54,965 bases of DNA from a virus (taxonomy: Duplodnaviria; Caudoviricetes). The DNA is taken from IMG/VR virus record IMGVR_UViG_3300036832_000602, positions 1 through 54,965 of that record; one strand, written 5' to 3'. Position numbers and translations under genes: made by a program. The notes below the pieces were generated by a model. The model had not been told where the DNA came from. It searched no databases and saw only the letters and a list, made by a program, of their open reading frames with translations. The first letter of the stretch is position 1. Each line of letters opens with the position of its first letter. Positions 34,623 to 54,954 of this stretch are shown in pieces.

Positions 34623-35498
34623 ATGGCATACGCGAAGAAGAGCAAGGAAGAGAAGATCGAGGAGGTCAAGGCGGCGCAGGAGAAGCTGACGGCGGCGCTG
34701 GAAGAGATGGTCACCGGGGAGGATTGGATCCGGTGGCTGAACTACCAGACCAAGTTTCACAAGTACTCGGCTAACAACTGCATGCTCATCGTGCTTCAGA
34801 ACCCCAACGCTACGCAGGTAGCCGGCTACGAGACCTGGAAGAAATTGGGCCGGCAGGTCATGAAAGACGAGAAGTCGATCCGCATCTTCGCTCCGATCAA
34901 GGGGGCGCGCACCGAGCAGGATCCGGCTACCGGCGAGGATGTCACCCGCACCTGGCTGCGCTTCATGCTGGTGGGTGTGTTCGATGTGAGCCAGACAACC
35001 GGCGATCCGCTCCCCGAGGCGCAGCATCCGGTCCTGCTCGACGGGGAGGCGCCCGAGGGGCTGTACGACGCCCTAGCGGCGCAGGTAGCCGCGGCCGGCT
35101 ACGCGCTCCACAGGGGGGACTGCCGCGGAGCCAACGGCTACACCGACTACCTGGCTCGCGTGGTCAAGGTGCGCGACGACGTTTCCGAGGCGCAGGCGTG
35201 CAAGACGCTGGCGCACGAGCTGGCCCATGTGCTGCTCGATCACGAGCACCGCGGCCACGGCGCCGAGGCGACCATCACGCGGGACCGGATGGAGGTCGAA
35301 GCCGAGTCGGTCGCCTACATCGTGTGCAGCTTGCACGGGCTGGACTCGAGCGGCTACACGCTCGGGTACGTTGCCCACTGGGCCGATGGCAGCCTCGCCA
35401 AGGTACGCGAGACCACCGCCAAGGTTGCCGAGGTCGCCAAGCGGATCCTGGACACTACCGAGGTGCCCGCCGCCGACCGTGAGCTGGTGGCGGCATGA
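34623..35498 (+). CDS. ardC: ArdC-like ssDNA-binding antirestriction protein with HExxH metallopeptidase-like domain
   Basis: FHKYSANN.MLI..Q, VAGY.TWKKLGRQV.K.EK.I.I.AP, VFDVSQT.G, TLAHELAH, EVEAESVAY. Confidence 0.85.
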   Translation: MAYAKKSKEEKIEEVKAAQEKLTAALEEMVTGEDWIRWLNYQTKFHKYSANNCMLIVLQNPNATQVAGYETWKKLGRQVMKDEKSIRIFAPIKGARTEQDPATGEDVTRTWLRFMLVGVFDVSQTTGDPLPEAQHPVLLDGEAPEGLYDALAAQVAAAGYALHRGDCRGANGYTDYLARVVKVRDDVSEAQACKTLAHELAHVLLDHEHRGHGAEATITRDRMEVEAESVAYIVCSLHGLDSSGYTLGYVAHWADGSLAKVRETTAKVAEVAKRILDTTEVPAADRELVAA

Positions 35499-43208: not shown

Positions 43209-44569
43209 GCCTCTACCCGTTCCAGCAGGAGGACGTCAGTTACCTACAGGATCAGGCGAGCGCTCTGATTGCCAACGAGATGGGCACCGGCAAAACTTTC
43301 GAGGCCATCGCCCGTGACGCCGAGCTACGCAGGCCGTTCGGGTTCTCAGCCCCGACGCTGGTCGTGGCCCCGCTGGTCACGCTCGAGTCCGTGTGGCAGC
43401 GGCACTTCGAGGAGCTGACCAGCCTGTCGGTGGTGGCGCTCGATCCCCGCAGCCGTAACCAAACGTGGAACGACTGGAAGGAGGCCGGAGGCGACGTCTT
43501 CCTGGCGCACTGGGAGGCACTCCGCTTGATGCCGCAGCTAACGGAGATCAAGTGGGGGCACATCATCGCTGACGAGTGCCACCGGATGAAGAACCGGCGC
43601 GCCCAGCAGACACGGGCGCTGAAGGCGATCCCCGCCTACAACAAGACTGCCATGTCCGGCACCCCTGTGGTCAACCGGCCCGACGAGCTATGGAGCATCC
43701 TCAACTGGCTGTGGCCACGTGAGTACTCGTCGTACTGGCGCTTCTTCAACAGATACGTCGCCACTGAGGTTGACTTCGCAGCCGGCCGGCAGTTCCGCAA
43801 GGTGATTGGTCCGAAGAACGTGGACAAGCTGCAAGCAGCAGTCAAGCCATTCTACGTGCGCCGGTTGAAGACGGAGGTGCTGCCCGAGCTACCGGAGAAG
43901 TACCACACCGAGATCCGGGTCACCCTCACACCGCAGCAACGCAAAGCCTACAACACCATGCGCGACGAGATGATCGCCTGGATCGGGGAGCAGGAGGAGG
44001 ACGTGCTGCCCGCCCCTGTGGTTGTAGCGCAGTTGACCCGCCTGCAGCAGTTCGCCTGCGCCTACGCCGAGATGGACGACCAGGGACGGGTCCGGCTGTC
44101 GGAACCATCGTCCAAGCTCGACGCGCTCATGGATGTGCTGGACGAGGCCGGCAGCGAGTCGGTGGTTGTATTCTCCCGGTTCCGCAGCCTGATCGACCTG
44201 CTCGTAGTGCGGCTGACGAAGGCTGGCATCAGCCACGTCGCCTTCACAGGCGACACACCACAGGCCCACCGTGCCCACCTGGTAGACCAGTTCCAGGACG
44301 GGCACGCACGCGTGTTCGCCGGCACCATCGGAGCCGGTGGCGTAGGTCTGACGCTTACCGCCGCCAGTACGGTCGTGTTCATCGACCGGGAATGGTCGCC
44401 GGCTGCGAACGGGCAGGCCGAGGACCGACTCCACAGGATCGGCCAGCAGAACGCCGTCAACGTCATCGACGTCATCGCCCGCAACACCGTGGAACCGAAG
44501 AAGATGCGAACACTGGAAACCAAACGGGACTGGATCCGGCGCATGCTGGGAGATCAGTATGAGGGATGA
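43205..44569 (+). CDS. SNF2-family (SF2) helicase/ATPase
   Basis: LYPFQ, NEMGTGKT, DECH, SGTP..N, GVGLTLT, QAEDRLHRIGQ. Confidence 0.93.
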   Translation: MSLYPFQQEDVSYLQDQASALIANEMGTGKTFEAIARDAELRRPFGFSAPTLVVAPLVTLESVWQRHFEELTSLSVVALDPRSRNQTWNDWKEAGGDVFLAHWEALRLMPQLTEIKWGHIIADECHRMKNRRAQQTRALKAIPAYNKTAMSGTPVVNRPDELWSILNWLWPREYSSYWRFFNRYVATEVDFAAGRQFRKVIGPKNVDKLQAAVKPFYVRRLKTEVLPELPEKYHTEIRVTLTPQQRKAYNTMRDEMIAWIGEQEEDVLPAPVVVAQLTRLQQFACAYAEMDDQGRVRLSEPSSKLDALMDVLDEAGSESVVVFSRFRSLIDLLVVRLTKAGISHVAFTGDTPQAHRAHLVDQFQDGHARVFAGTIGAGGVGLTLTAASTVVFIDREWSPAANGQAEDRLHRIGQQNAVNVIDVIARNTVEPKKMRTLETKRDWIRRMLGDQYEG

Positions 44570-45044
44570 TCTCATAGAGTTGTCATTCGGCAGCATTCGC
44601 CGGTCTCTCTTTGAGGAGAAGGTGCGCCACGAACCGTCAGGATGCCACCGGTGGACTGCGGCCATGGATAATACCGGTTATGGTCGGATAAGGCTCAGTC
44701 AACCTCGCAAGGCTGGGCTCGCTCATAGAGTTTCATATGAGCTGTACAAGGGTCCTATACCTGAAGGTAAGGAGCTTGACCACCTGTGCCACAACCGCTG
44801 GTGTGTCAATCCAGAACACCTGGACCTTGTAACTCATGCAGAAAATATGCATAGGTACGCTCTATTGTGTAAGAGAAAAGAAGCCTGTAAGCATGGGCAC
44901 CGGCTCTCCGATAAGAACCGCTACAACAGAGGTAGAGCCTGCAAATACTGCATGTACGTGAGGGGTGCTTTACGTGATGGACATGCCTGTAAGTCGTTCG
45001 AGGACTGGCTACTGATGCAAGGGGGTGGTGATGCAGACGATTAG
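44559..45044 (+). CDS. HNH homing endonuclease
   Basis: GCHRWT, AHRVSY...GPIP..LDHLCHNRWCVNPEHL..VT..EN, CKHGH. Confidence 0.9.
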   Translation: MRDDLIELSFGSIRRSLFEEKVRHEPSGCHRWTAAMDNTGYGRIRLSQPRKAGLAHRVSYELYKGPIPEGKELDHLCHNRWCVNPEHLDLVTHAENMHRYALLCKRKEACKHGHRLSDKNRYNRGRACKYCMYVRGALRDGHACKSFEDWLLMQGGGDADD

Positions 45045-47334: not shown

Positions 47335-49557
47335 TTGCCCATTGTAGTCCCACACTCAGAAGATGCGTCAAACAAGCGAGAGACCTTCTTCAGGGTGATC
47401 TTCGACAAGGTCCAAGTCGAGGGGCGCGAGAGGTTCGTCTGCATAGCCCGTAAGGCACAGGGCCGCAACGGCAGGTTCCAAGAGCACTTCTTCCGGTGGC
47501 CACTGGAACTGGACGCTCTAACACGCTACGTGGACGAAGGTGTCGCCGGACACAACGTTTACTTTGCCCCGATGCTCTTCGACGGGCCAACACGTACGAA
47601 GGAACACTGCGTTTCGTGCCCGGTGGTGTGGGCAGACCTCGACACCTGCGATCCATCGAACCTCCTCGTGCCGGCGTCGGTGTCGATCGAGTCAAGCTCA
47701 GGCCGCTGGCAAGCCCTGTGGATATTCAACCAGGAGGAGGACCCAGGGGAGGTCGAGGACCTCGCTCGCAAGATCGCCTACGCGCACTCCGAGGAGGGCG
47801 CCGACAAAAGCGGCTGGGACCTCACCCAGCTACTGCGGGTGCCGTTCACCTACAACTGGAAGTACGAACCTGCTTCCGTAGTGATGATCCGGTCGGCCAG
47901 TTCCGAGACGACACTCCGAGACATGGACGGGATCTACCCCAGCACCGAGAGCCATGAGCAGTCTTCCTGGCCGTTCCCCGAGGAGATACCGAACGCCCAA
48001 TGGGTATTGGAACAGCACGAGGCCCATATGCGGCCGCTGGTGTTCCGGCTCATCGAGGACGAGCCGGCGAACGACTGGTCGGGCGCCCTGTGGAACCTCG
48101 AGATGCTGCTGTGCGAGGAAGGGCTCAGTCGTGAGGAAGTGTTCGCCATCGCTTCCATTGCCGCCTGCAACAAGTATGCCCGCGACGGGCGCTCACAGCA
48201 TGCGCTGTGGGCCGAGGTCTGCAAGGCATGGTCTACTACCCACGAGCAAACCGGCATCATTCCCAGCGTTGAGGATGTTGCCAACCTCGAAGATCTGCTA
48301 AGCGATGAGAACATGCGGTCGGCTGAAGCCGACCACACCTTCATCGATGACTACATCGACTGGGGACAGGCCGCTTCAGACGCTGCCCCGGAGTACCACG
48401 AGGCCGGAGCATTCGTAGCCCTTAGCTCGATACTGTCGGGATACCTGCGCTTGATGACGTCGATCGGGCCGTTCCGATTCAACCTGTGGTTCATGCTGTT
48501 GGGTGACTCCACGCTCACCCGCAAGACCACCGCCATGAGGCTGTCTACCCAAATGGTGATGGACGTCGAGAAGGAAATAGTACTGGCGACAGATGGCTCA
48601 TGGGAGGGATTGCTCACAGGGATAAGCAAGCGCGACGGGAGAGCCACCCTCTACCGGTCCGACGAGTTCAGCGGCACGCTGGCGACGATGACGAAACGCG
48701 AGTACATGGTCGGGTCAACGGAGATGTTCACCCAGCTCTACGACGGTAGCTTTGTGAAGCGCCTGCTGCGCAAGGAAACGATAACGATCGATGAGCCGAT
48801 CTTCATCTTCTTCGTTGGTGGAATCCGGGAGCGCGTACAAAGCCTGCTAGGACCAGAGCATGTGACCTCCGGGTTCGTGGCGAGGTTCGTTCTCATCAAC
48901 GGGAACGTCGACATGAACAGGCTGCGCTCGATACATGCCTCGAACGCAGCCAGTGAGGCAAGTGAAGATCAAAGAATCGCATTGGTGAACCGCCTGCGCC
49001 AGATGCAGGAGCTGTATCGTAGTAACTTCACTGTCAGCTCGAACGGTAACCATGCTGTTGTGCAGAACAAACCCCATGTAACCCTGACCCAGGACGCTTG
49101 GGACCTGTACAACAGCCTCGAGATGAAGCTCATAAAAGCTGTCTATAACACTGCCAGCCAGGAAATGCTGCTTCCCACCATGGATCGGCTTGCTAAAGGT
49201 GGGTTGAAAGCGTCGGTGCTGATAGCAGCTAGCCGCATGAAGAGTGAACATGTGACGGTCGAGGAAGGAGACGTACTCAAGGCCTTCCAGTACATCAGCA
49301 AATGGAGGCAGAATGCCATCGAAGTGCTGGCAAATATAGGCGTGTCCGCTACCGAGAGACGCATCCAGCAAGTCGAGAGGGCCATCTACCGCAGGAGGAC
49401 AGGGCTATCCCGCAGCGAACTGATGCGGAACTTCCACCTAAACGCGTTCGAAGCGCAGTTGATCCTCGACACGCTGGTACAGCGCGGTCTGATCAAGCGC
49501 ACTCCTGGGAGGAGGGGGAGCATATCCGAGATGTGGTTCCCCACTCAGGACACATGA
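47335..49557 (+). CDS. Primase (RepB-like) fused to DUF3987-like helicase/ATPase
   Basis: VYFAP, WADLD, ESSSGRWQALW, DLTQLLRVP.TYN.K; G.STLTRKTT, SDEF, LYDG, GFVARF. Confidence 0.85.
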   Translation: MPIVVPHSEDASNKRETFFRVIFDKVQVEGRERFVCIARKAQGRNGRFQEHFFRWPLELDALTRYVDEGVAGHNVYFAPMLFDGPTRTKEHCVSCPVVWADLDTCDPSNLLVPASVSIESSSGRWQALWIFNQEEDPGEVEDLARKIAYAHSEEGADKSGWDLTQLLRVPFTYNWKYEPASVVMIRSASSETTLRDMDGIYPSTESHEQSSWPFPEEIPNAQWVLEQHEAHMRPLVFRLIEDEPANDWSGALWNLEMLLCEEGLSREEVFAIASIAACNKYARDGRSQHALWAEVCKAWSTTHEQTGIIPSVEDVANLEDLLSDENMRSAEADHTFIDDYIDWGQAASDAAPEYHEAGAFVALSSILSGYLRLMTSIGPFRFNLWFMLLGDSTLTRKTTAMRLSTQMVMDVEKEIVLATDGSWEGLLTGISKRDGRATLYRSDEFSGTLATMTKREYMVGSTEMFTQLYDGSFVKRLLRKETITIDEPIFIFFVGGIRERVQSLLGPEHVTSGFVARFVLINGNVDMNRLRSIHASNAASEASEDQRIALVNRLRQMQELYRSNFTVSSNGNHAVVQNKPHVTLTQDAWDLYNSLEMKLIKAVYNTASQEMLLPTMDRLAKGGLKASVLIAASRMKSEHVTVEEGDVLKAFQYISKWRQNAIEVLANIGVSATERRIQQVERAIYRRRTGLSRSELMRNFHLNAFEAQLILDTLVQRGLIKRTPGRRGSISEMWFPTQDT

Positions 49558-49745
49558 TGGCCAGAGTCAAGCGCTGCGATCAGTGCGGCAACAGCATCTG
49601 CCTATCGTCCTCGGCTGACGACTTCTGCGATGCAGCCTGCTACATCCGCTGGCTGGTCGTCACGGGCCGGGTCACCCGACGTCGTGCCATCGGGTACGTG
49701 AAGTGCCGACTGCAAGGCCTGCCGACCGCCGCTCTCATACCGTGA
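49554..49745 (+). CDS. Small zinc-finger protein (CxxCG...FCxxxC)
   Basis: Coupled overlaps on both sides. Confidence 0.6.
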   Translation: MMARVKRCDQCGNSICLSSSADDFCDAACYIRWLVVTGRVTRRRAIGYVKCRLQGLPTAALIP

Positions 49746-52700
49746 CCGCTACCTACATCGTCGGCGACGTGTTCCAGGGACTGGCAACCCTCGAGCCAGG
49801 GAGCGTTGACCTGGTCGTCACGAGTCCACCCTTCCTGGCTGTCCGCACCTACCTTCCGGTGGACGATCCTTTGAAGCACAAGGAGATCGGCTCCGAGCCG
49901 AACCCTGCCGTGTTCATCGACGTCATGCTCGACCTAGTCGAGGCCATCGCGCCGGCACTCGCCCCGCACGGATCGATGTGCCTGGAGTTTGGGGACACCT
50001 ACGCCGGCTCGAGCGGCACCAACGTCAGCGAGCGCCGCAAGATCGGCGCGCAGGAGCTGGCTACCGATGAGGAGTACAAGCAGATCTACGAGCGGGATAT
50101 CCCCTACCGGCGCGCCGGCTACCGCGAGTTCGCAACCTCCAGCTCCAAACCACGCACTGTCGAAGGCTGGCCGCTCGACAAGTCGAAGTGCATGATCCCT
50201 GAACTGATAGCCATCGCGCTCGCCTACGGCTTCAACCCGCTCACCGGCCGCACCACCGACCGCTGGCGTATCCGCAATCTCGTGACGTGGTGCCGACCCA
50301 ACCCTCCCATCGGAGCGGACGGCGACAAGTTCCGCCCAGCTTCCACCCGTATCATCGTTGCCACCAAGGCGAAGGACCGCTACTTCGACGGGTTCGGGGT
50401 ACGTGTGCCGTCCCTGACCCCGCCTCGAGAGGGCTACCCGGTGACCCCAGACCAGAAGATGGCAACGGCTACAGGGGGCTCCTGGCACATGGACCGCAGC
50501 GCCATGAACGGGGAAACCCGTCCCCTCTACGACTGGTGGGAGATCCCGACAGAGAGCTTCAAGGGCAGCCACTACGCCACCTATCCGCGCAGCCTGGTGG
50601 AACCGCTCATCGTAGCCATGTGCCCCGAGCGCGTCTGCGGCACCTGCGGACAGCCCAGCCTGCGGGTCATGGGGGATACGAAGTACCTGAACTCCCGCAA
50701 CGAGGAAGCCTCGTACCTCGCCATGAACGATTCCAAGGCGAGGATGGCCCCTGGTGTGAACCAGTTCAAGCACGACACCGTCCACCACATCGTGCAGGAG
50801 TCGGTCGGCTGGTCGGACTGCGGTCACGACAACTGGCGCCTCGGACGGGTGCTCGACCCTTTCGCCGGGTCCGGCACCACCCTCCTCGTCACCTGCGGAC
50901 TAGGACGTGAGAGCATTGGGATCGACCTCGACCACCGCAACCTCACCCTGGCGCAGAACCGCATCGGCATGTTCCTCCAGAACGTGATCGAGCTACCGCT
51001 GGACACGCCGCTGCCGCTTCAGACACCACAGGTAGAGCCTGAGCCTGTGGTGCAGGCGCCAGAACCGGTGGTGCTGGAGGTGCCAAAACCGACACCACAG
51101 CCCCAGCCAGCGGTCACCGAGCCGCTATGGAGGGAACTGCCGAAGCTCATCGAACTGCCAGACGAGTTCGAGGTAGTGCGCCGGCACCCGCTCGCCAAGT
51201 GCGAGGAGTGCCCGCTGGCGAACGAGCAATCGATCTTCGTGCCGTCCAAGCAGGTCGAGGACCCGCACATCGTCATCGTGGGTGAGGCTCCGGGCGCACA
51301 GGAAGCAAAGCACGGTATCCCGTTCGTCGGTCCGTCCGGCAAGATACTCGACGCAGTGCTAGCGGGTCAGCGGCTGCAGCGAAAAGAAGCCTTCATCACC
51401 AACGCCTGTCTATGCCGGCCGAAGGACAACGCCACGCCCACCGCCAAGGCCGTGCGGGCATGCGCGCCGCGCCTGCTCGAGGAAGTCACTGAGGCGACCA
51501 AGGGCGGCGCCCCGATTGTGGCTATGGGAAACGTGGCTGCCTCCGCCATCCTCGACTACAAGGTGTCCATCCTCGAGCACCGCATGGGGCTGCCGAAGGA
51601 ATCGCACCTCTACCCAGGCGTGCCGGTCATTCCGACCATCCACCCTGCCTACGCGCTACGCGTGCCCGAGGCGCTGCCGCTGCTGGTGGACGACATCGCC
51701 AAGATCAACGGCGACGTCGGCATGGGCTGGGAGGAACCGCAGTACCGTACCTTCGAGGTTGCACTGCAGGCCCGCCAGGCACTCCAGCAGCTACGCAAGC
51801 TGGCCCCAGCCTCGGTGGTGGTCGACATCGAGGTCGGCGCCGAGAAGGACGAGACGTTCATCCGGCCCGACAAGCTGCGGCTGCTCTGCGTGGGGCTGGC
51901 CTATGCCCCCGGCAAGGCGATCGTGATCGGTGAGCAGGCCCTGCACGACCTCGGTGTGCAGCACGAGCTATCAGCCCTACTGCGCTCATCGAGGGTGGTC
52001 GCGCACAACGGCAAGTTCGACCTCGCCGGCTTGAGACACATCACCACAGGGGCACGACTGGGCTTCGACACGATGCTAGCGAGCTACGTCTGCGACGAGC
52101 GGAAGGGTACCCACGGGCTGAAGTACCTGGCGATGGAACGGCTCGGTGCTCCAAACTACGCAACCCTGATCCACAAGTACATCTCCAGCAAAGGTGAAAA
52201 CTTCGCTCACGTTCCGACTGAAGTCCTGCACAAGTACAACGCTTACGATGTGGTGTGTACCTGGAGCCTCATGGAGTTGTACGAGGAACGGATGCGTCGG
52301 GAGGATCTGACCAAGGTACACGACATGCTCGTGCGCGGCTCGAACATGCTGCTCCCTGTGGAGCAGAAGGGACTGCGGGTCGACCTCGAGTACATGCACA
52401 AGCTCGACACCGAGTTCAGCGACCAGATCGAGGGCCTTGACCGCAGCATAAGGAAATGGGTGGAGAACGCCCGTTCTCCCCAGCAGATCACCAACGCCCT
52501 GCGCAAGCTGGGGATGAACGCGCCGTCCACCGGCATCGAGGTCCTGCAGAAGCTGGTTGAGACAGCAACCGGGCCGGCGCTCGAGTTCCTTACCCAGCTA
52601 ATGGAGCACCGACGCCTGTCCAAGCTGCACGGTACCTATGTGAAGGGCATTGAGGACCGACTCGAGAACGGTTACGTACACCCGACCTTCCTACTGCACG

Positions 52701-53461
52701 GCACCACGACCGGGCGTCTGTCATGCCGCAACCCAAACCTGCAGAACATCCCACGGGAATCGGCTATCAAGCGCATGTTCGTGCCTGACCCCGGCAAGGT
52801 GTTCGTGCAGGCCGACTACAAGGCCATTGAGTTGCGCGTGATCACCTGCGAGTCACGCGACGAGTATTTGAGGAGCATGTTTGCGGAGGATCGTGACATC
52901 CACTCGGAGGTGGCTGAGAGGTTCTTCGGGCCGGGCTTCACCAAGGAGCAGCGTGTCTGGGCTAAGGGCGTTGTATACGGACTCAGCTACGGACGTGAGG
53001 CGTACGCTCTCGGCCAGGCTGCCGGCATTCCGACAGCGGAGGCGCAGACCTACATCGACACGTTTCTGGGGATGATCCCCGGCGCCATGGCCTGGCGTGA
53101 CCGGATCGCTCACCAGGTACTCGAGACGGACCAGGACCTGACTACCGTCTACGGGCGCCACCGGCGCGTGCTGCTGCTCACCGACGAGAACAAGAAGGAC
53201 ACCTTGAAGGAGTCCTACGCCTTCATTCCACAGAGCACCGCCAGCGACATCTGCCTGTCGGCTGCGATCGAGCTACACGAGAAGCACGGACTCGACATCC
53301 GGCTTCTCGTACATGACTCGATCCTGGTCGAGACGGACGAGCCCGACGAGGTGGCGACGCTGATGCACGAGGTCATGCCGAGGGTCGCCGCCGAGACCTA
53401 CAGTTCCTTCGTCCCCTTCCCAGTTGAGACTGCAGTGGGCACGAACTGGTCGGAGGTGTAG
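49742..53461 (+). CDS. Fusion: N4/N6 DNA methyltransferase + family-4 uracil-DNA glycosylase + 3'-5' exonuclease / DNA polymerase A
   Basis: VTSPPF, HYATYP, DPFAGSGTT; CEECPL, GEAPG, PFVG.SG, CRP, HPAY; DIE, HNGKFD, YNAYD; TGRLS..PNLQNIP, ADYKAIELR, RVWAKGVVYGLSYG, VHDS; one uninterrupted frame. Confidence 0.92.
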   Translation: MTATYIVGDVFQGLATLEPGSVDLVVTSPPFLAVRTYLPVDDPLKHKEIGSEPNPAVFIDVMLDLVEAIAPALAPHGSMCLEFGDTYAGSSGTNVSERRKIGAQELATDEEYKQIYERDIPYRRAGYREFATSSSKPRTVEGWPLDKSKCMIPELIAIALAYGFNPLTGRTTDRWRIRNLVTWCRPNPPIGADGDKFRPASTRIIVATKAKDRYFDGFGVRVPSLTPPREGYPVTPDQKMATATGGSWHMDRSAMNGETRPLYDWWEIPTESFKGSHYATYPRSLVEPLIVAMCPERVCGTCGQPSLRVMGDTKYLNSRNEEASYLAMNDSKARMAPGVNQFKHDTVHHIVQESVGWSDCGHDNWRLGRVLDPFAGSGTTLLVTCGLGRESIGIDLDHRNLTLAQNRIGMFLQNVIELPLDTPLPLQTPQVEPEPVVQAPEPVVLEVPKPTPQPQPAVTEPLWRELPKLIELPDEFEVVRRHPLAKCEECPLANEQSIFVPSKQVEDPHIVIVGEAPGAQEAKHGIPFVGPSGKILDAVLAGQRLQRKEAFITNACLCRPKDNATPTAKAVRACAPRLLEEVTEATKGGAPIVAMGNVAASAILDYKVSILEHRMGLPKESHLYPGVPVIPTIHPAYALRVPEALPLLVDDIAKINGDVGMGWEEPQYRTFEVALQARQALQQLRKLAPASVVVDIEVGAEKDETFIRPDKLRLLCVGLAYAPGKAIVIGEQALHDLGVQHELSALLRSSRVVAHNGKFDLAGLRHITTGARLGFDTMLASYVCDERKGTHGLKYLAMERLGAPNYATLIHKYISSKGENFAHVPTEVLHKYNAYDVVCTWSLMELYEERMRREDLTKVHDMLVRGSNMLLPVEQKGLRVDLEYMHKLDTEFSDQIEGLDRSIRKWVENARSPQQITNALRKLGMNAPSTGIEVLQKLVETATGPALEFLTQLMEHRRLSKLHGTYVKGIEDRLENGYVHPTFLLHGTTTGRLSCRNPNLQNIPRESAIKRMFVPDPGKVFVQADYKAIELRVITCESRDEYLRSMFAEDRDIHSEVAERFFGPGFTKEQRVWAKGVVYGLSYGREAYALGQAAGIPTAEAQTYIDTFLGMIPGAMAWRDRIAHQVLETDQDLTTVYGRHRRVLLLTDENKKDTLKESYAFIPQSTASDICLSAAIELHEKHGLDIRLLVHDSILVETDEPDEVATLMHEVMPRVAAETYSSFVPFPVETAVGTNWSEV

Positions 53462-53592
53462 GATCATGACGTTCACGGTACCGGCGACCTTCTGGTCTAG
53501 CCCGTTAGGTGACGAATGACCGGCGTATGTCACCTCTCCAATCGGTCGGGGCAACTAGTCCGCTGGGATCGGGCAAGAGCCGGTTATATCCC

Positions 53593-53847
53593 ATGAAACC
53601 ATCCGATGCTGTCAAGCGCGGACTCTGCCCGAGCTGTCTCGGGAAGGGGACCGTCACGGTCCTCGTGCCATACGAGGACGACGCTGCCGAGTGCTTGACC
53701 TGCGCGGGTACCGGCATGTTCCCGGTCCGCTGCACCCGCTGCGACGGCGAGCTGCACCTGAACGTGATGAGTGACTGGGTGCACGTCGATTACGACCAGC
53801 ACAACCACATACCGCGGCTACCACCAAAGGCAGAGCCGCTCTCCTAG
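53593..53847 (+). CDS. Zinc-ribbon protein (CxxCxGxG x2)
   Basis: CPSCLGKG, CLTCAGTG, CTRC; start uncertain. Confidence 0.65.
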   Translation: MKPSDAVKRGLCPSCLGKGTVTVLVPYEDDAAECLTCAGTGMFPVRCTRCDGELHLNVMSDWVHVDYDQHNHIPRLPPKAEPLS

Positions 53848-53848
53848 C

Positions 53849-54313
53849 GTGTACTGCGTCGCGCTCGACCCAGGTGGCACCACAGGGGTAGCCACCGTCC
53901 CGAATGCCGACGAGCCGTGGGTGATCGAGCCGCGCCAGTTCGAGGGCGAGCACCACGCTACCCTGCTGAGCTACCTGGAGTTCAGCCGACCGGAGACGAT
54001 CATCGCAGAATCCTTTTACCGCACGGCCAACGAGGCGGCGCGGCTGGCGTCGAGCGAGATCATCGGCGTCGTCAAGGCGTATGCGCAGGCGACGGCTACT
54101 CCTGTGGTCTGGCAGTCCCCCTCCACAGGGAAGGGCTTCTGGTCCGATCTCCGGCTCAAGAAGTGCGGGCTCTATGTCGTCGGCAAGCCGCACGCTCGCG
54201 ACGCGATCCGACACTACGCCTACTGGCGCACCTTCACGCTGAAGGATTCCTCACTCCTGGCGAAGACAGGGGAGAGCGGCCCCGAAGGGCCGCACCCCTT
54301 TCTTGACGACTAG
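53849..54313 (+). CDS. RuvC-like Holliday junction resolvase
   Basis: ALDPGGTTGVA, IIAESF, HARDAIRH. Confidence 0.8.
   Translation: MYCVALDPGGTTGVATVPNADEPWVIEPRQFEGEHHATLLSYLEFSRPETIIAESFYRTANEAARLASSEIIGVVKAYAQATATPVVWQSPSTGKGFWSDLRLKKCGLYVVGKPHARDAIRHYAYWRTFTLKDSSLLAKTGESGPEGPHPFLDD
54268..54299. terminator. Conserved hairpin, copy 3, at the convergent gene junction
   Basis: AGGGGAGAGCGGCCC-CGAA-GGGCCGCACCCCT. Confidence 0.65.
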
Positions 54314-54954
54314 CAGCCGTCCTGCCAGGCAGGGTACAGACCGCCCTGCTGGTCGTACAGGGTCCAGAACGCATTGAGCTGCGTCTGCCACGAGTACATC
54401 GTGGCGGGAGCAGCCAGCCCGGTCACGTTCGTCCACGTCGTCGGCTCGAACTGGAAGTAGCCGCCGCCGTCGCCGCCGGGGTTGTTGGTGCCTCCTGACT
54501 CGACCCCGAGGATGCAGCCCACCGGCCACGGCTGGCTCGACGGGGCGACGTAGGGGTCACCGTACCCATAGCTCGCCGCCGCCGCGGTGGTCGTCGTGAC
54601 CGGCGCCACGTAGACGTAGGGCTGCGTCGTGGTCGTGACAGGCGGCACGTACGGCTGCGTGGTCGTTGTCGTTGACTCGTATAGTTGCCATGCCTTGAGC
54701 TGTGCAGCAGCCCTCGCTTCGGCGAGGCTTCGTTTGGTTGCGAGAAACCGTTTCCGTAGAAGGAAGCGGTGCCTTTGCTGCCAGTGCTCGGTCGGGAGTG
54801 TGCTCGTCGGATAGACCCCGGCGAGCCACACTCTCGGCGTCGGCGGCGAGTGAATCCTTGTCTGAAGGTCAGGGCTTGATAAAGCGACTGCCGGCACCCA
54901 GGCCGGCAGAGAAAGCGCTGTAAGAGCGCCTATGGCTATGGCTAAGCGTTTCAT
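54310..54954 (-). CDS. Secreted Rpf-like lytic transglycosylase
   Basis: Signal peptide MKRLAIAIG..., Thr/Pro linker, CILGVESGG...GGYFQFEPTTW...Q...AW..C. Confidence 0.8.
   Translation of the reverse strand: MKRLAIAIGALTALSLPAWVPAVALSSPDLQTRIHSPPTPRVWLAGVYPTSTLPTEHWQQRHRFLLRKRFLATKRSLAEARAAAQLKAWQLYESTTTTTQPYVPPVTTTTQPYVYVAPVTTTTAAAASYGYGDPYVAPSSQPWPVGCILGVESGGTNNPGGDGGGYFQFEPTTWTNVTGLAAPATMYSWQTQLNAFWTLYDQQGGLYPAWQDGC

Follow-up and report, generated by a model that had tools for sequence, protein, structure and literature searches.

Family A DNA polymerases of phages that carry an N-terminal uracil-DNA glycosylase (UDG), the UDG-PolAs, are described for SPO1, SP-10, the SP-15/YerA41/phiLo phages and the N4-like cluster 17 in the accessible text of two reports (PMC10201439, PMC13697223). 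According to the same text, the UDG of N4-like enzymes has lost its catalytic residues and SP15-like enzymes carry large inserts (PMC10201439, PMC13697223), while the UDG of the latter excises template uracil ahead of synthesis (PMC13697223). Phage clusters for 7-deazaguanine DNA modification comprise, in the accessible part of a further report, FolE, QueD, QueE and QueC together with DpdA (Hutinet et al. 2019, PMC6884629). Here we describe a gene of an uncultured soil tailed phage that encodes a DNA methyltransferase (methylase), a linker and a UDG-PolA in one reading frame. The phage is represented by the IMG/VR virus record IMGVR_UViG_3300036832_000602, a linear sequence of 54,965 bases with a CheckV completeness of 86%, which was analysed as a whole and is called the window below. 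Orphan phage methylases and UDG-PolAs are each already known, their fusion is new. A first, sequence-only reading of the window had stated that UDG-PolA fusions exist, in agreement with the accessible text on these enzymes (PMC10201439, PMC13697223). It knew of no methylase tethered to one, and neither the sequence collections searched nor the literature yielded a described case.

The gene lies in a single stop-free open reading frame (ORF) at 49703..53461 of the + strand. Read from the GTG at 49742 it comprises 1239 codons and a stop, close to the ~1240 unbroken codons of the sequence-only reading (coordinates of all features are collected in Table 1). This GTG is the likely start codon because it overlaps the TGA of a small ORF in front of it (GTGA) and aligns with the N-termini of stand-alone methylase homologues. 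Four Pfam domains score above their cut-offs in the protein: N6_N4_Mtase (PF01555; residues 22-295 and a second stretch, 66.3 bits vs 26.7), UDG (residues 507-644, 91.9 bits vs 24.3), DNA_pol_A_exo1 (residues 688-844, 44.7 bits vs 23.6) and DNA_pol_A (residues 883-1238, 226.8 bits vs 34.3). The PHROG assignments are concordant, and on a DNA-level search PF01555 scores 36.2 and 32.4 bits. The GC content of third codon positions is similar across the parts, with 0.846 in the methylase, 0.843 in the UDG and 0.823 in the polymerase. Between 50900 and 51300 only the fusion frame is open, the alternative frames holding 4 and 3 stops.

The gene is a genuine in-frame fusion and not an assembly artefact. 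The stretch was found in two public soil runs, X1, the probable source, and X2, another sample from another study; no RNA run holding it is listed among the public runs. From X1, a Logan contig of 7046 bases, assembled independently, is identical to the window over 48901-54500 (0 differences in 5.6 kb), and the sole unitig and contig break, at 48901, is distant from the domain borders. X2 holds a strain that is ~96-97% identical to the window. One of its contigs (579 bases, 50800-51375) connects methylase motif I, the entire linker and the beginning of the UDG, differing from the window by 17 substitutions and containing 0 gaps, and further ones span the methylase at 49851-50557 and 50624-50774 as well as pieces of the polymerase. 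This comparison was made on assembled contigs, not raw reads, and 40 of the 110 differences of X2 were listed. Among the 34 of these that fall inside the ORF, 24 are synonymous, 23 affect codon position 3 and 0 create a stop. A stop or frameshift in the linker, which the sequence-only reading had named as one danger to its own claim, was not seen, the contigs of both runs being open and gap-free there. An apparent joint 50185->54054, present in both runs with 20-letter sides, was considered as a deletion form and rejected: we attribute it to foreign high-GC contigs that match two short stretches at 90%, one of which encodes the conserved methylase motif GWPLDKS.

In the methylase module motif IV precedes motif I, an order that defines the beta class and is kept in 74 relatives. 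The sequence-only reading had named this class from SPPF ahead of DPFAGSG, and the profile match to PF01555 agrees with it. The conserved positions listed for the 74-sequence alignment, among them S28, P30, D372, P373, F374, G376 and G378, are present in the fusion protein. The CxxC...CxH insert reported beforehand is likewise there (299/302, 360/362). It is, however, not peculiar to this protein, since C299, C302 and C360 vary little or not at all in 74 family members; the element is probably a zinc site. Queried with residues 1-470, a set of 1.84 billion representative proteins yielded 16,656 methylase relatives. Many of the best 150 are stand-alone proteins of 400-450 amino acids that cover residue 1 to ~415 end to end at 40-50% identity; overall, identities to proteins of this length, mostly viral, span 38-53%. 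The homologues terminate 5-25 residues beyond GMFL (409-412). By these alignments, the fusion contains a full-length member of a stand-alone beta-class family that occurs mostly in viruses.

Regarding the base that is modified, motif IV reads SPPF, as it does in M.PvuII. The N4-cytosine enzyme N4CMT has SPPY and the adenine methylase CcrM has DPPY at this place in the accessible text of PMC10406627. Since motif IV shares its Ser with N4CMT, whereas CcrM has Asp there, N4-cytosine is somewhat favoured as the target. Matches in the PDB, weak and at motif level (E 5e-9 to 1e-6), include TTHA0409 (2zie) and the N4-cytosine methylase 8s9m, and one ESM Atlas cluster of look-alikes was automatically named cytosine-N4-specific.

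Many long methylase relatives (~700-970 amino acids) carry LAGLIDADG or intein-splicing domains, and intein domains occur in a few UDG-PolA relatives of more than 1000 amino acids (P0123, P0127, P0145, P0425, P0437, P0471 and others). Judging from these domain matches, both halves of the fusion belong to families that are often invaded by inteins; no intein domain is present in the window's fusion protein. The best long methylase relative, P0122 (795 amino acids), has its methylase at the C-terminus (residues 380-790) behind ~380 residues without clear family and is a separate, different fusion within the same methylase family.

The second half of the protein has the arrangement by which UDG-PolAs are defined in the accessible text of PMC10201439, a family-4 UDG N-terminal to the exonuclease-polymerase chain, with phrog_17 matching residues 504-1238. 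The UDG aligns over its whole length with the family-4 enzyme TM0511 of T. maritima (1l9g, E 3.9e-24), including CxxC, GE(G/A)PG, the CRP...C cysteines and HP(S/A)Y. Thus the four iron-sulphur cysteines of a family-4 UDG, as recognised at first reading, all have their counterparts in the T. maritima enzyme, and motifs and cysteines are invariant or nearly so among relatives. The score against NCBIfam TIGR00758 (UDG_fam4) is 115.7, below the cut-off of 125.3. The polymerase can be aligned with the Klenow fragment across its motifs A to C (E 8.8e-44). The three exonuclease motifs (I-III) as well as polymerase motifs A and B have canonical sequences. All motifs of this half had been described as intact at first reading, and they are present at the places given there; motif C (53309-53320), though, is VHDS and not HDE. 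Glu883 of Klenow is the active-site Glu of the canonical HDE motif C; the Ser in its place is invariant in 10 aligned relatives, hence by its conservation a clade trait, with an active site predicted to be slightly unlike that of Klenow. Scores against the bacterial Pol I equivalogs stay far below their thresholds (290 bits vs 720 for NF004397, 249 vs 600 for TIGR00593), and by these profiles the protein is classed as a PolA of the phage type rather than as an orthologue of Pol I. Stand-alone UDG-PolAs of 700-823 amino acids and 43-74% identity start at residue ~472-480, and compared with them the UDG-PolA part appears complete and of known kind. For the closest polymerase relative, P0003 (74%), the gene is called from 'VFVPS...' and lacks the CxxC of the UDG iron-sulphur site; this reflects either a start called too far downstream or a disrupted gene.

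Because stand-alone methylases end after GMFL and stand-alone UDG-PolAs begin at residue ~472-480, the alignments describe two complete proteins that are joined through residues 416-478. This linker is the Pro/Glu/Val-rich segment noticed in the sequence-only reading, with 16 Pro, 10 Glu, 9 Leu and 8 Val among its 63 residues, and such a Pro/Glu-rich spacer has the composition typical of working interdomain linkers. Its DNA contains no tandem repeats, and tblastn against 80 related loci gave no significant match. The idea that the linker is the frameshifted remnant of an upstream ORF was rejected, the frame with the TAG being open for only 138 nt and its translation noise-like. At the border to the UDG lies an in-frame GTG (V479, 51176), which aligns with the first residue of stand-alone P0005 and with the ATG or GTG starts of the related loci L007, L009 and L025. 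A GAGG is found 2 nt upstream, with a duplex energy of -7.3 kcal/mol (other gene starts of the window: +0.6 to -8.7). Strain X2 reads GTT at this codon (G>T at 51178). In another frame a TAG overlaps the GTG (TAGTG, 51174-51178) in a stop-start-like manner, which may be chance.

Within the collections searched, the fusion appears to be confined to this phage lineage. A collection of 5.8 billion proteins was searched with the whole protein, the methylase region and the junction region, and 120 proteins were listed for each. In every search only the fusion protein itself, 1 of the 120 listed, combines PF01555 with polymerase domains; the search for this architecture elsewhere, as proposed at first reading, thus gave none besides the window protein among the matches listed. 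Since these are the top-ranked rows of each search, polymerases fused to methylases of other subfamilies may still exist beyond them. None of the best 150 of the 16,656 methylase relatives exceeds 923 amino acids, and none of at least 5000 matching GenBank phage records covers 80% or more of the fusion protein. All 80 polymerase loci from IMG/VR match from residue 454 onward only and do not contain the methylase within 6 kb, and no relative of the window's polymerase, of its primase or of their neighbours occurs within 5 kb of any of 80 IMG/VR methylase loci. The junction query matched 22 loci in JGI metagenomes, all 22 by the methylase part alone. In GTDB genomes all matches were cellular and Pol I-like and concerned residue 622 and beyond, and the scan with the fusion protein revealed neither a prophage copy nor a host. 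In the ESM Atlas the whole protein resembles clusters of UDG-PolAs, and its N-terminal part clusters of viral methylases. Even the closer polymerase relatives, at 68-74% identity, are unfused. In the literature, supplementary files of papers aside, no methylase-polymerase fusion was found, and the word 'methyltransferase' has 0 occurrences in the paper that reclassifies PolA.

The relatives suggest where the methylase came in. Their interval between primase and polymerase varies from 0.2 to 5.9 kb. In 41 non-duplicate loci it contains 221 ORFs with 100 or more amino acids, of which the first 150, from 29 loci, were scanned with Pfam. The scan counted 24 QueC, 19 QueD/PTPS, 16-18 radical-SAM QueE-like and 16 GTP cyclohydrolase I matches, and no methylase family is among the 15 families matched by these 150 ORFs. 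By tblastn, at least three of FolE, QueD, QueE and QueC occur in 46 of the 57 related loci with at least 3 kb of upstream sequence. A conserved ORF of ~235 amino acids (phrog_20335) ends at the polymerase start in 45 of the same 57 loci, in 24 of the 24 closest loci and in 63 of 80 overall. Its profile has a single PDB match, the DNA-guanine transglycosylase DpdA (7ui4; weak, E 0.0048, 19.4 bits); TGT/DpdA Pfam searches on five relatives and a Pfam scan of the ORF itself gave nothing. With this one weak match, and consistent with the neighbouring genes, we call the ORF DpdA-like. In loci L007, L009 and L025 the start codon of the polymerase overlaps the stop of the upstream gene (ATGA or GTGA).

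The window holds 0 of the 5 genes FolE, QueD, QueE, QueC and DpdA-like, and no PF01555 methylase was found in five near-complete relatives. In a tree of 71 polymerase sequences (10 of 80 loci were left out for stops, a length below 700 amino acids or duplication), the window polymerase belongs to clades of 11, 13 and 20 rows in which every other row bears the cassette (Shimodaira-Hasegawa-like approximate likelihood ratio test 100, 96 and 100). Because of this position within cassette-bearing clades, the simplest history is that the methylase replaced the 7-deazaguanine cassette immediately ahead of the polymerase gene and that its stop codon was lost afterwards. This position next to the polymerase gene acts as an exchange point for putative anti-restriction DNA chemistry, 7-deazaguanine in most relatives and methylation here. 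As an observation in its own right, FolE, QueD, QueE, QueC and the ~235-residue ORF stand together in most of the loci L003-L082 (for example L003:2290-6040 and L009:2186-6004), which suggests that a large clade of soil phages combines UDG-PolA with putative 7-deazaguanine DNA.

Taken together, we think it rather probable that this is a genuine fusion of a phage-type orphan methylase, on a flexible linker of ~60 residues, to a replicative UDG-exonuclease-PolA, that it took the place of the cassette and that it serves self-methylation against restriction. A methylase gene took over the slot of the preQ0 and DpdA-like cassette upstream of the polymerase and, in the simplest history, then lost its stop codon, resulting in the in-frame fusion. 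Knowledge of the methylase family suggests that the phage methylates its own DNA and escapes host restriction. Through the fusion, methylase and polymerase would be made simultaneously and in equal amounts, and the tether would keep the methylase in reach of freshly made duplex, while the UDG domain would remove template uracil as in other UDG-PolAs. The data show the open frame, the domains and their completeness, the uniqueness within the collections searched, the occurrence in two soil runs and the replacement of the cassette, while translation as one chain, methylase activity, base specificity and a benefit of tethering are what we infer here. The likely anti-restriction role fits the context because the methylase occupies the 7-deazaguanine slot of the relatives and the phage also has an ArdC-like gene. 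The sequence-only reading had pictured a replisome that methylates DNA as it is made and removes uracil; from it we retain the architecture and the anti-restriction role, not the action at the fork, the cooperation of methylation and uracil removal or the countering of deaminase- or dUTP-based defences. A bolder version of the proposal appears doubtful to us, namely that a single chain of ~137 kDa exists, whose tethered N4-cytosine methylase marks the daughter duplex within seconds so that no unmethylated phage DNA is exposed to restriction, and which arose when a methylase moved into the place of a DpdA-type system and inherited its translational coupling.

Several points weigh against the self-methylating fusion. 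Only a single lineage, the window and its ~96-97% identical strain, is known to carry the fusion, which might for that reason be young and still unproven under selection. X1 and X2 are both soil metagenomes of 2020 and may share one campaign; the view through contigs, with 40 of the 110 differences listed, leaves minority variants with a stop possible. The linker changes freely, I416V, V436G and Q453R being among its 5 listed X2 differences, and the retained ancestral GTG at 51176 could still yield a separate UDG-PolA. The assignment of N4-cytosine as target depends on one motif and weak PDB matches. With a record that is 86% complete, a 7-deazaguanine cassette might also lie elsewhere in the genome.

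Among the alternatives, a recent neutral or slightly harmful accident, in which the stop was lost, both halves work as if separate and the tether brings no benefit, is possible and in our view doubtful. It would agree with the single lineage among the collections searched, with the unfused closer relatives, with the unique, low-complexity and fast-changing linker and with the overlap of upstream stop and polymerase start in relatives, from which a fusion is about one mutation away. However, the frame stayed intact without indels over ~3-4% DNA divergence, substitutions on both sides of the linker are mostly synonymous, and the spacer resembles linkers that work. Another possibility is that one ORF yields two proteins, with a start at GTG 51176 giving free UDG-PolA and the long product being minor or serving only the delivery of methylase. 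The codon matches the start of P0005 and those of L007, L009 and L025, the latter three overlapping the upstream stop, and it follows a GAGG with a duplex energy of -7.3 kcal/mol. The spacer of only 2 nt, the GTT in X2, by which this start differs between both known strains, and the failure of a sigma-70-like scan of the + strand, weak for a phage of this type, to find a promoter within the gene make this explanation an unlikely one.

It is very improbable that the methylase is catalytically dead and now assists the polymerase by binding double-stranded DNA or by conferring processivity. In the accessible text of PMC10201439, UDGs without catalytic residues are proposed as processivity modules in N4-like UDG-PolAs, and a gene for a clamp was not noticed among the replication genes of the window; the fusion methylase, however, keeps the conserved positions listed for the 74-sequence alignment, including those of motifs IV and I. 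An error that hides a stop or frameshift, or a chimeric contig of methylase and polymerase, can hardly be imagined any more. The record is metagenome-assembled and contigs rather than reads were compared, yet two assemblers agree on the source run, with the one break at no domain border, the diverged X2 strain bridges the junction without a gap, the codon-position bias of the differences follows the fusion frame and composition is uniform across the parts. The self-methylating fusion thus remains the explanation we prefer.

Besides the fusion gene, the window (GC ~0.61) has its structural genes on the minus strand and a replication module on the plus strand (Table 1), within which the HNH gene at 44559-45044 is probably a homing-type insertion. 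PHROG 11801, annotated 'DNA methyltransferase' and 2269 positions long, matched the SNF2 helicase of the window. The small Cys-rich ORF in front of the fusion gene overlaps the primase stop with its own ATG (ATGA) and the GTG of the fusion gene with its own TGA; it matches no Pfam or PHROG family and has no homologue across the 80 related loci. The nearest relatives of the large terminase are those of Streptomyces phages (44% identity), so that the host may be actinobacterial, which we regard as a lead only. One ORF in the primase-to-polymerase interval of a relative matches WhiB, which is typical of actinobacteria and their phages and agrees with this hint. No tRNA genes were found in the window.

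Table 1. Features of the fusion gene and of its surroundings in the window.
Feature	Position	Strand	Evidence or remark
Whole fusion gene	49742..53461	+	1239 codons and stop; methylase, linker, family-4 UDG, 3'-5' exonuclease, family A polymerase
Beta-class N6_N4 DNA methyltransferase module, residues 1-415	49742..50986	+	PF01555, 66.3 bits; phrog_67
Methylase motif IV SPPF, residues 28-31	49823..49834	+	S28 and P30 invariant in 16 sequences, nearly so in 74
Cys-rich element C299-x2-C302 ... C360-x-H362	50636..50827	+	family-wide, inside methylase
Methylase motif I DPFAGSG, residues 372-378, S-adenosylmethionine-binding loop	50855..50875	+	aligned with 2zie and 8s9m
Linker, residues 416-478, 63 amino acids	50987..51175	+	P16 E10 L9 V8
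In-frame GTG (V479) at start position of stand-alone UDG-PolA relatives	51176..51178	+	alignment with relatives
Family-4 UDG domain	51176..51721	+	Cys 487, 490, 558, 574; GEAPG 514-518; HPAY 634-637
3'-5' exonuclease domain	51803..52273	+	DIEV 695-698, HNGKFD 755-760, YNAYD 832-836
Family A polymerase domain	52388..53458	+	motif A QADYKAIELR 1023-1032, motif B 1071-1084, motif C VHDS 1190-1193
ArdC-like anti-restriction gene	34623-35498	+	ArdC N-terminal and M78/IrrE-type metallopeptidase domains, phrog_7245
SNF2 helicase	from 42911	+	replication module
HNH endonuclease (HNH_3)	44559-45044	+	between SNF2 helicase and PD-(D/E)XK exonuclease genes
PD-(D/E)XK exonuclease	from 45025	+	replication module
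Sak4-like AAA_24 protein	from 45881	+	replication module
DUF669 protein	from 46812	+	replication module
Primase/helicase (DUF3987, phrog_10514)	47335..49557	+	upstream bound of variable primase-to-polymerase interval
Small Cys-rich ORF, 63 amino acids (CxxC...C...C...C)	49554..49745	+	sequence and translation

If the long protein is made and both of its ends are active, this would be the first case of a DNA methylase built into a replicative polymerase. It would then become testable whether coupling modification to synthesis protects new DNA better than a free methylase does, and a polymerase that methylates its own product might be a useful reagent. Should the fusion be a recent accident, it would still be a clean natural example of translationally coupled neighbours becoming one gene.

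Compared with known systems, the protein resembles the UDG-PolAs other than the N4-like ones in keeping the catalytic motifs of the UDG, its residues 479-1239 being 43-74% identical to hundreds of metagenomic members. Unlike the described UDG-PolAs, it adds a methylase of 415 residues and a linker of 63 residues in front of the UDG, and its polymerase clade is linked with 7-deazaguanine genes rather than with thymine hypermodification. The solved polymerase chain 9qhs (1142 amino acids) is matched weakly, in the UDG part (E 2e-4). With stand-alone beta-class methylases of the SPP(Y/F) type it shares domain order, conserved residues, Cys-rich element and length; whereas these end shortly after GMFL, the fusion reads on into the polymerase. 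The 7-deazaguanine clusters of relatives occupy the same slot between primase and polymerase and presumably serve the same purpose, the protection of DNA from restriction. Their chemistry differs, however, since they exchange a base for a modified guanine and the window methylase would transfer a methyl group, and the enzyme by which they act on DNA is encoded separately, by a gene with a stop codon that overlaps the start of the polymerase, whereas that of the window is fused.

Two more distant parallels can be drawn. The DarB-type proteins of phage P1 are methylase-helicase fusions, and thus likewise hold a methylase in one chain with an enzyme that travels on DNA, within a mobile element and with an anti-restriction role; their partner is a helicase, that of the window a replicative polymerase. 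In eukaryotes, DNMT1 is recruited by PCNA for replication-coupled maintenance methylation, so that there, too, a methylase is held at the replication machinery and marks DNA promptly, which is an analogy and not a homology. That recruitment is non-covalent and by a clamp, concerns C5-cytosine and serves epigenetic inheritance, whereas the window encodes a covalent viral fusion. If methylation by the tethered enzyme indeed takes place at the fork, this fusion would be the covalent viral counterpart of clamp-recruited maintenance methylation.

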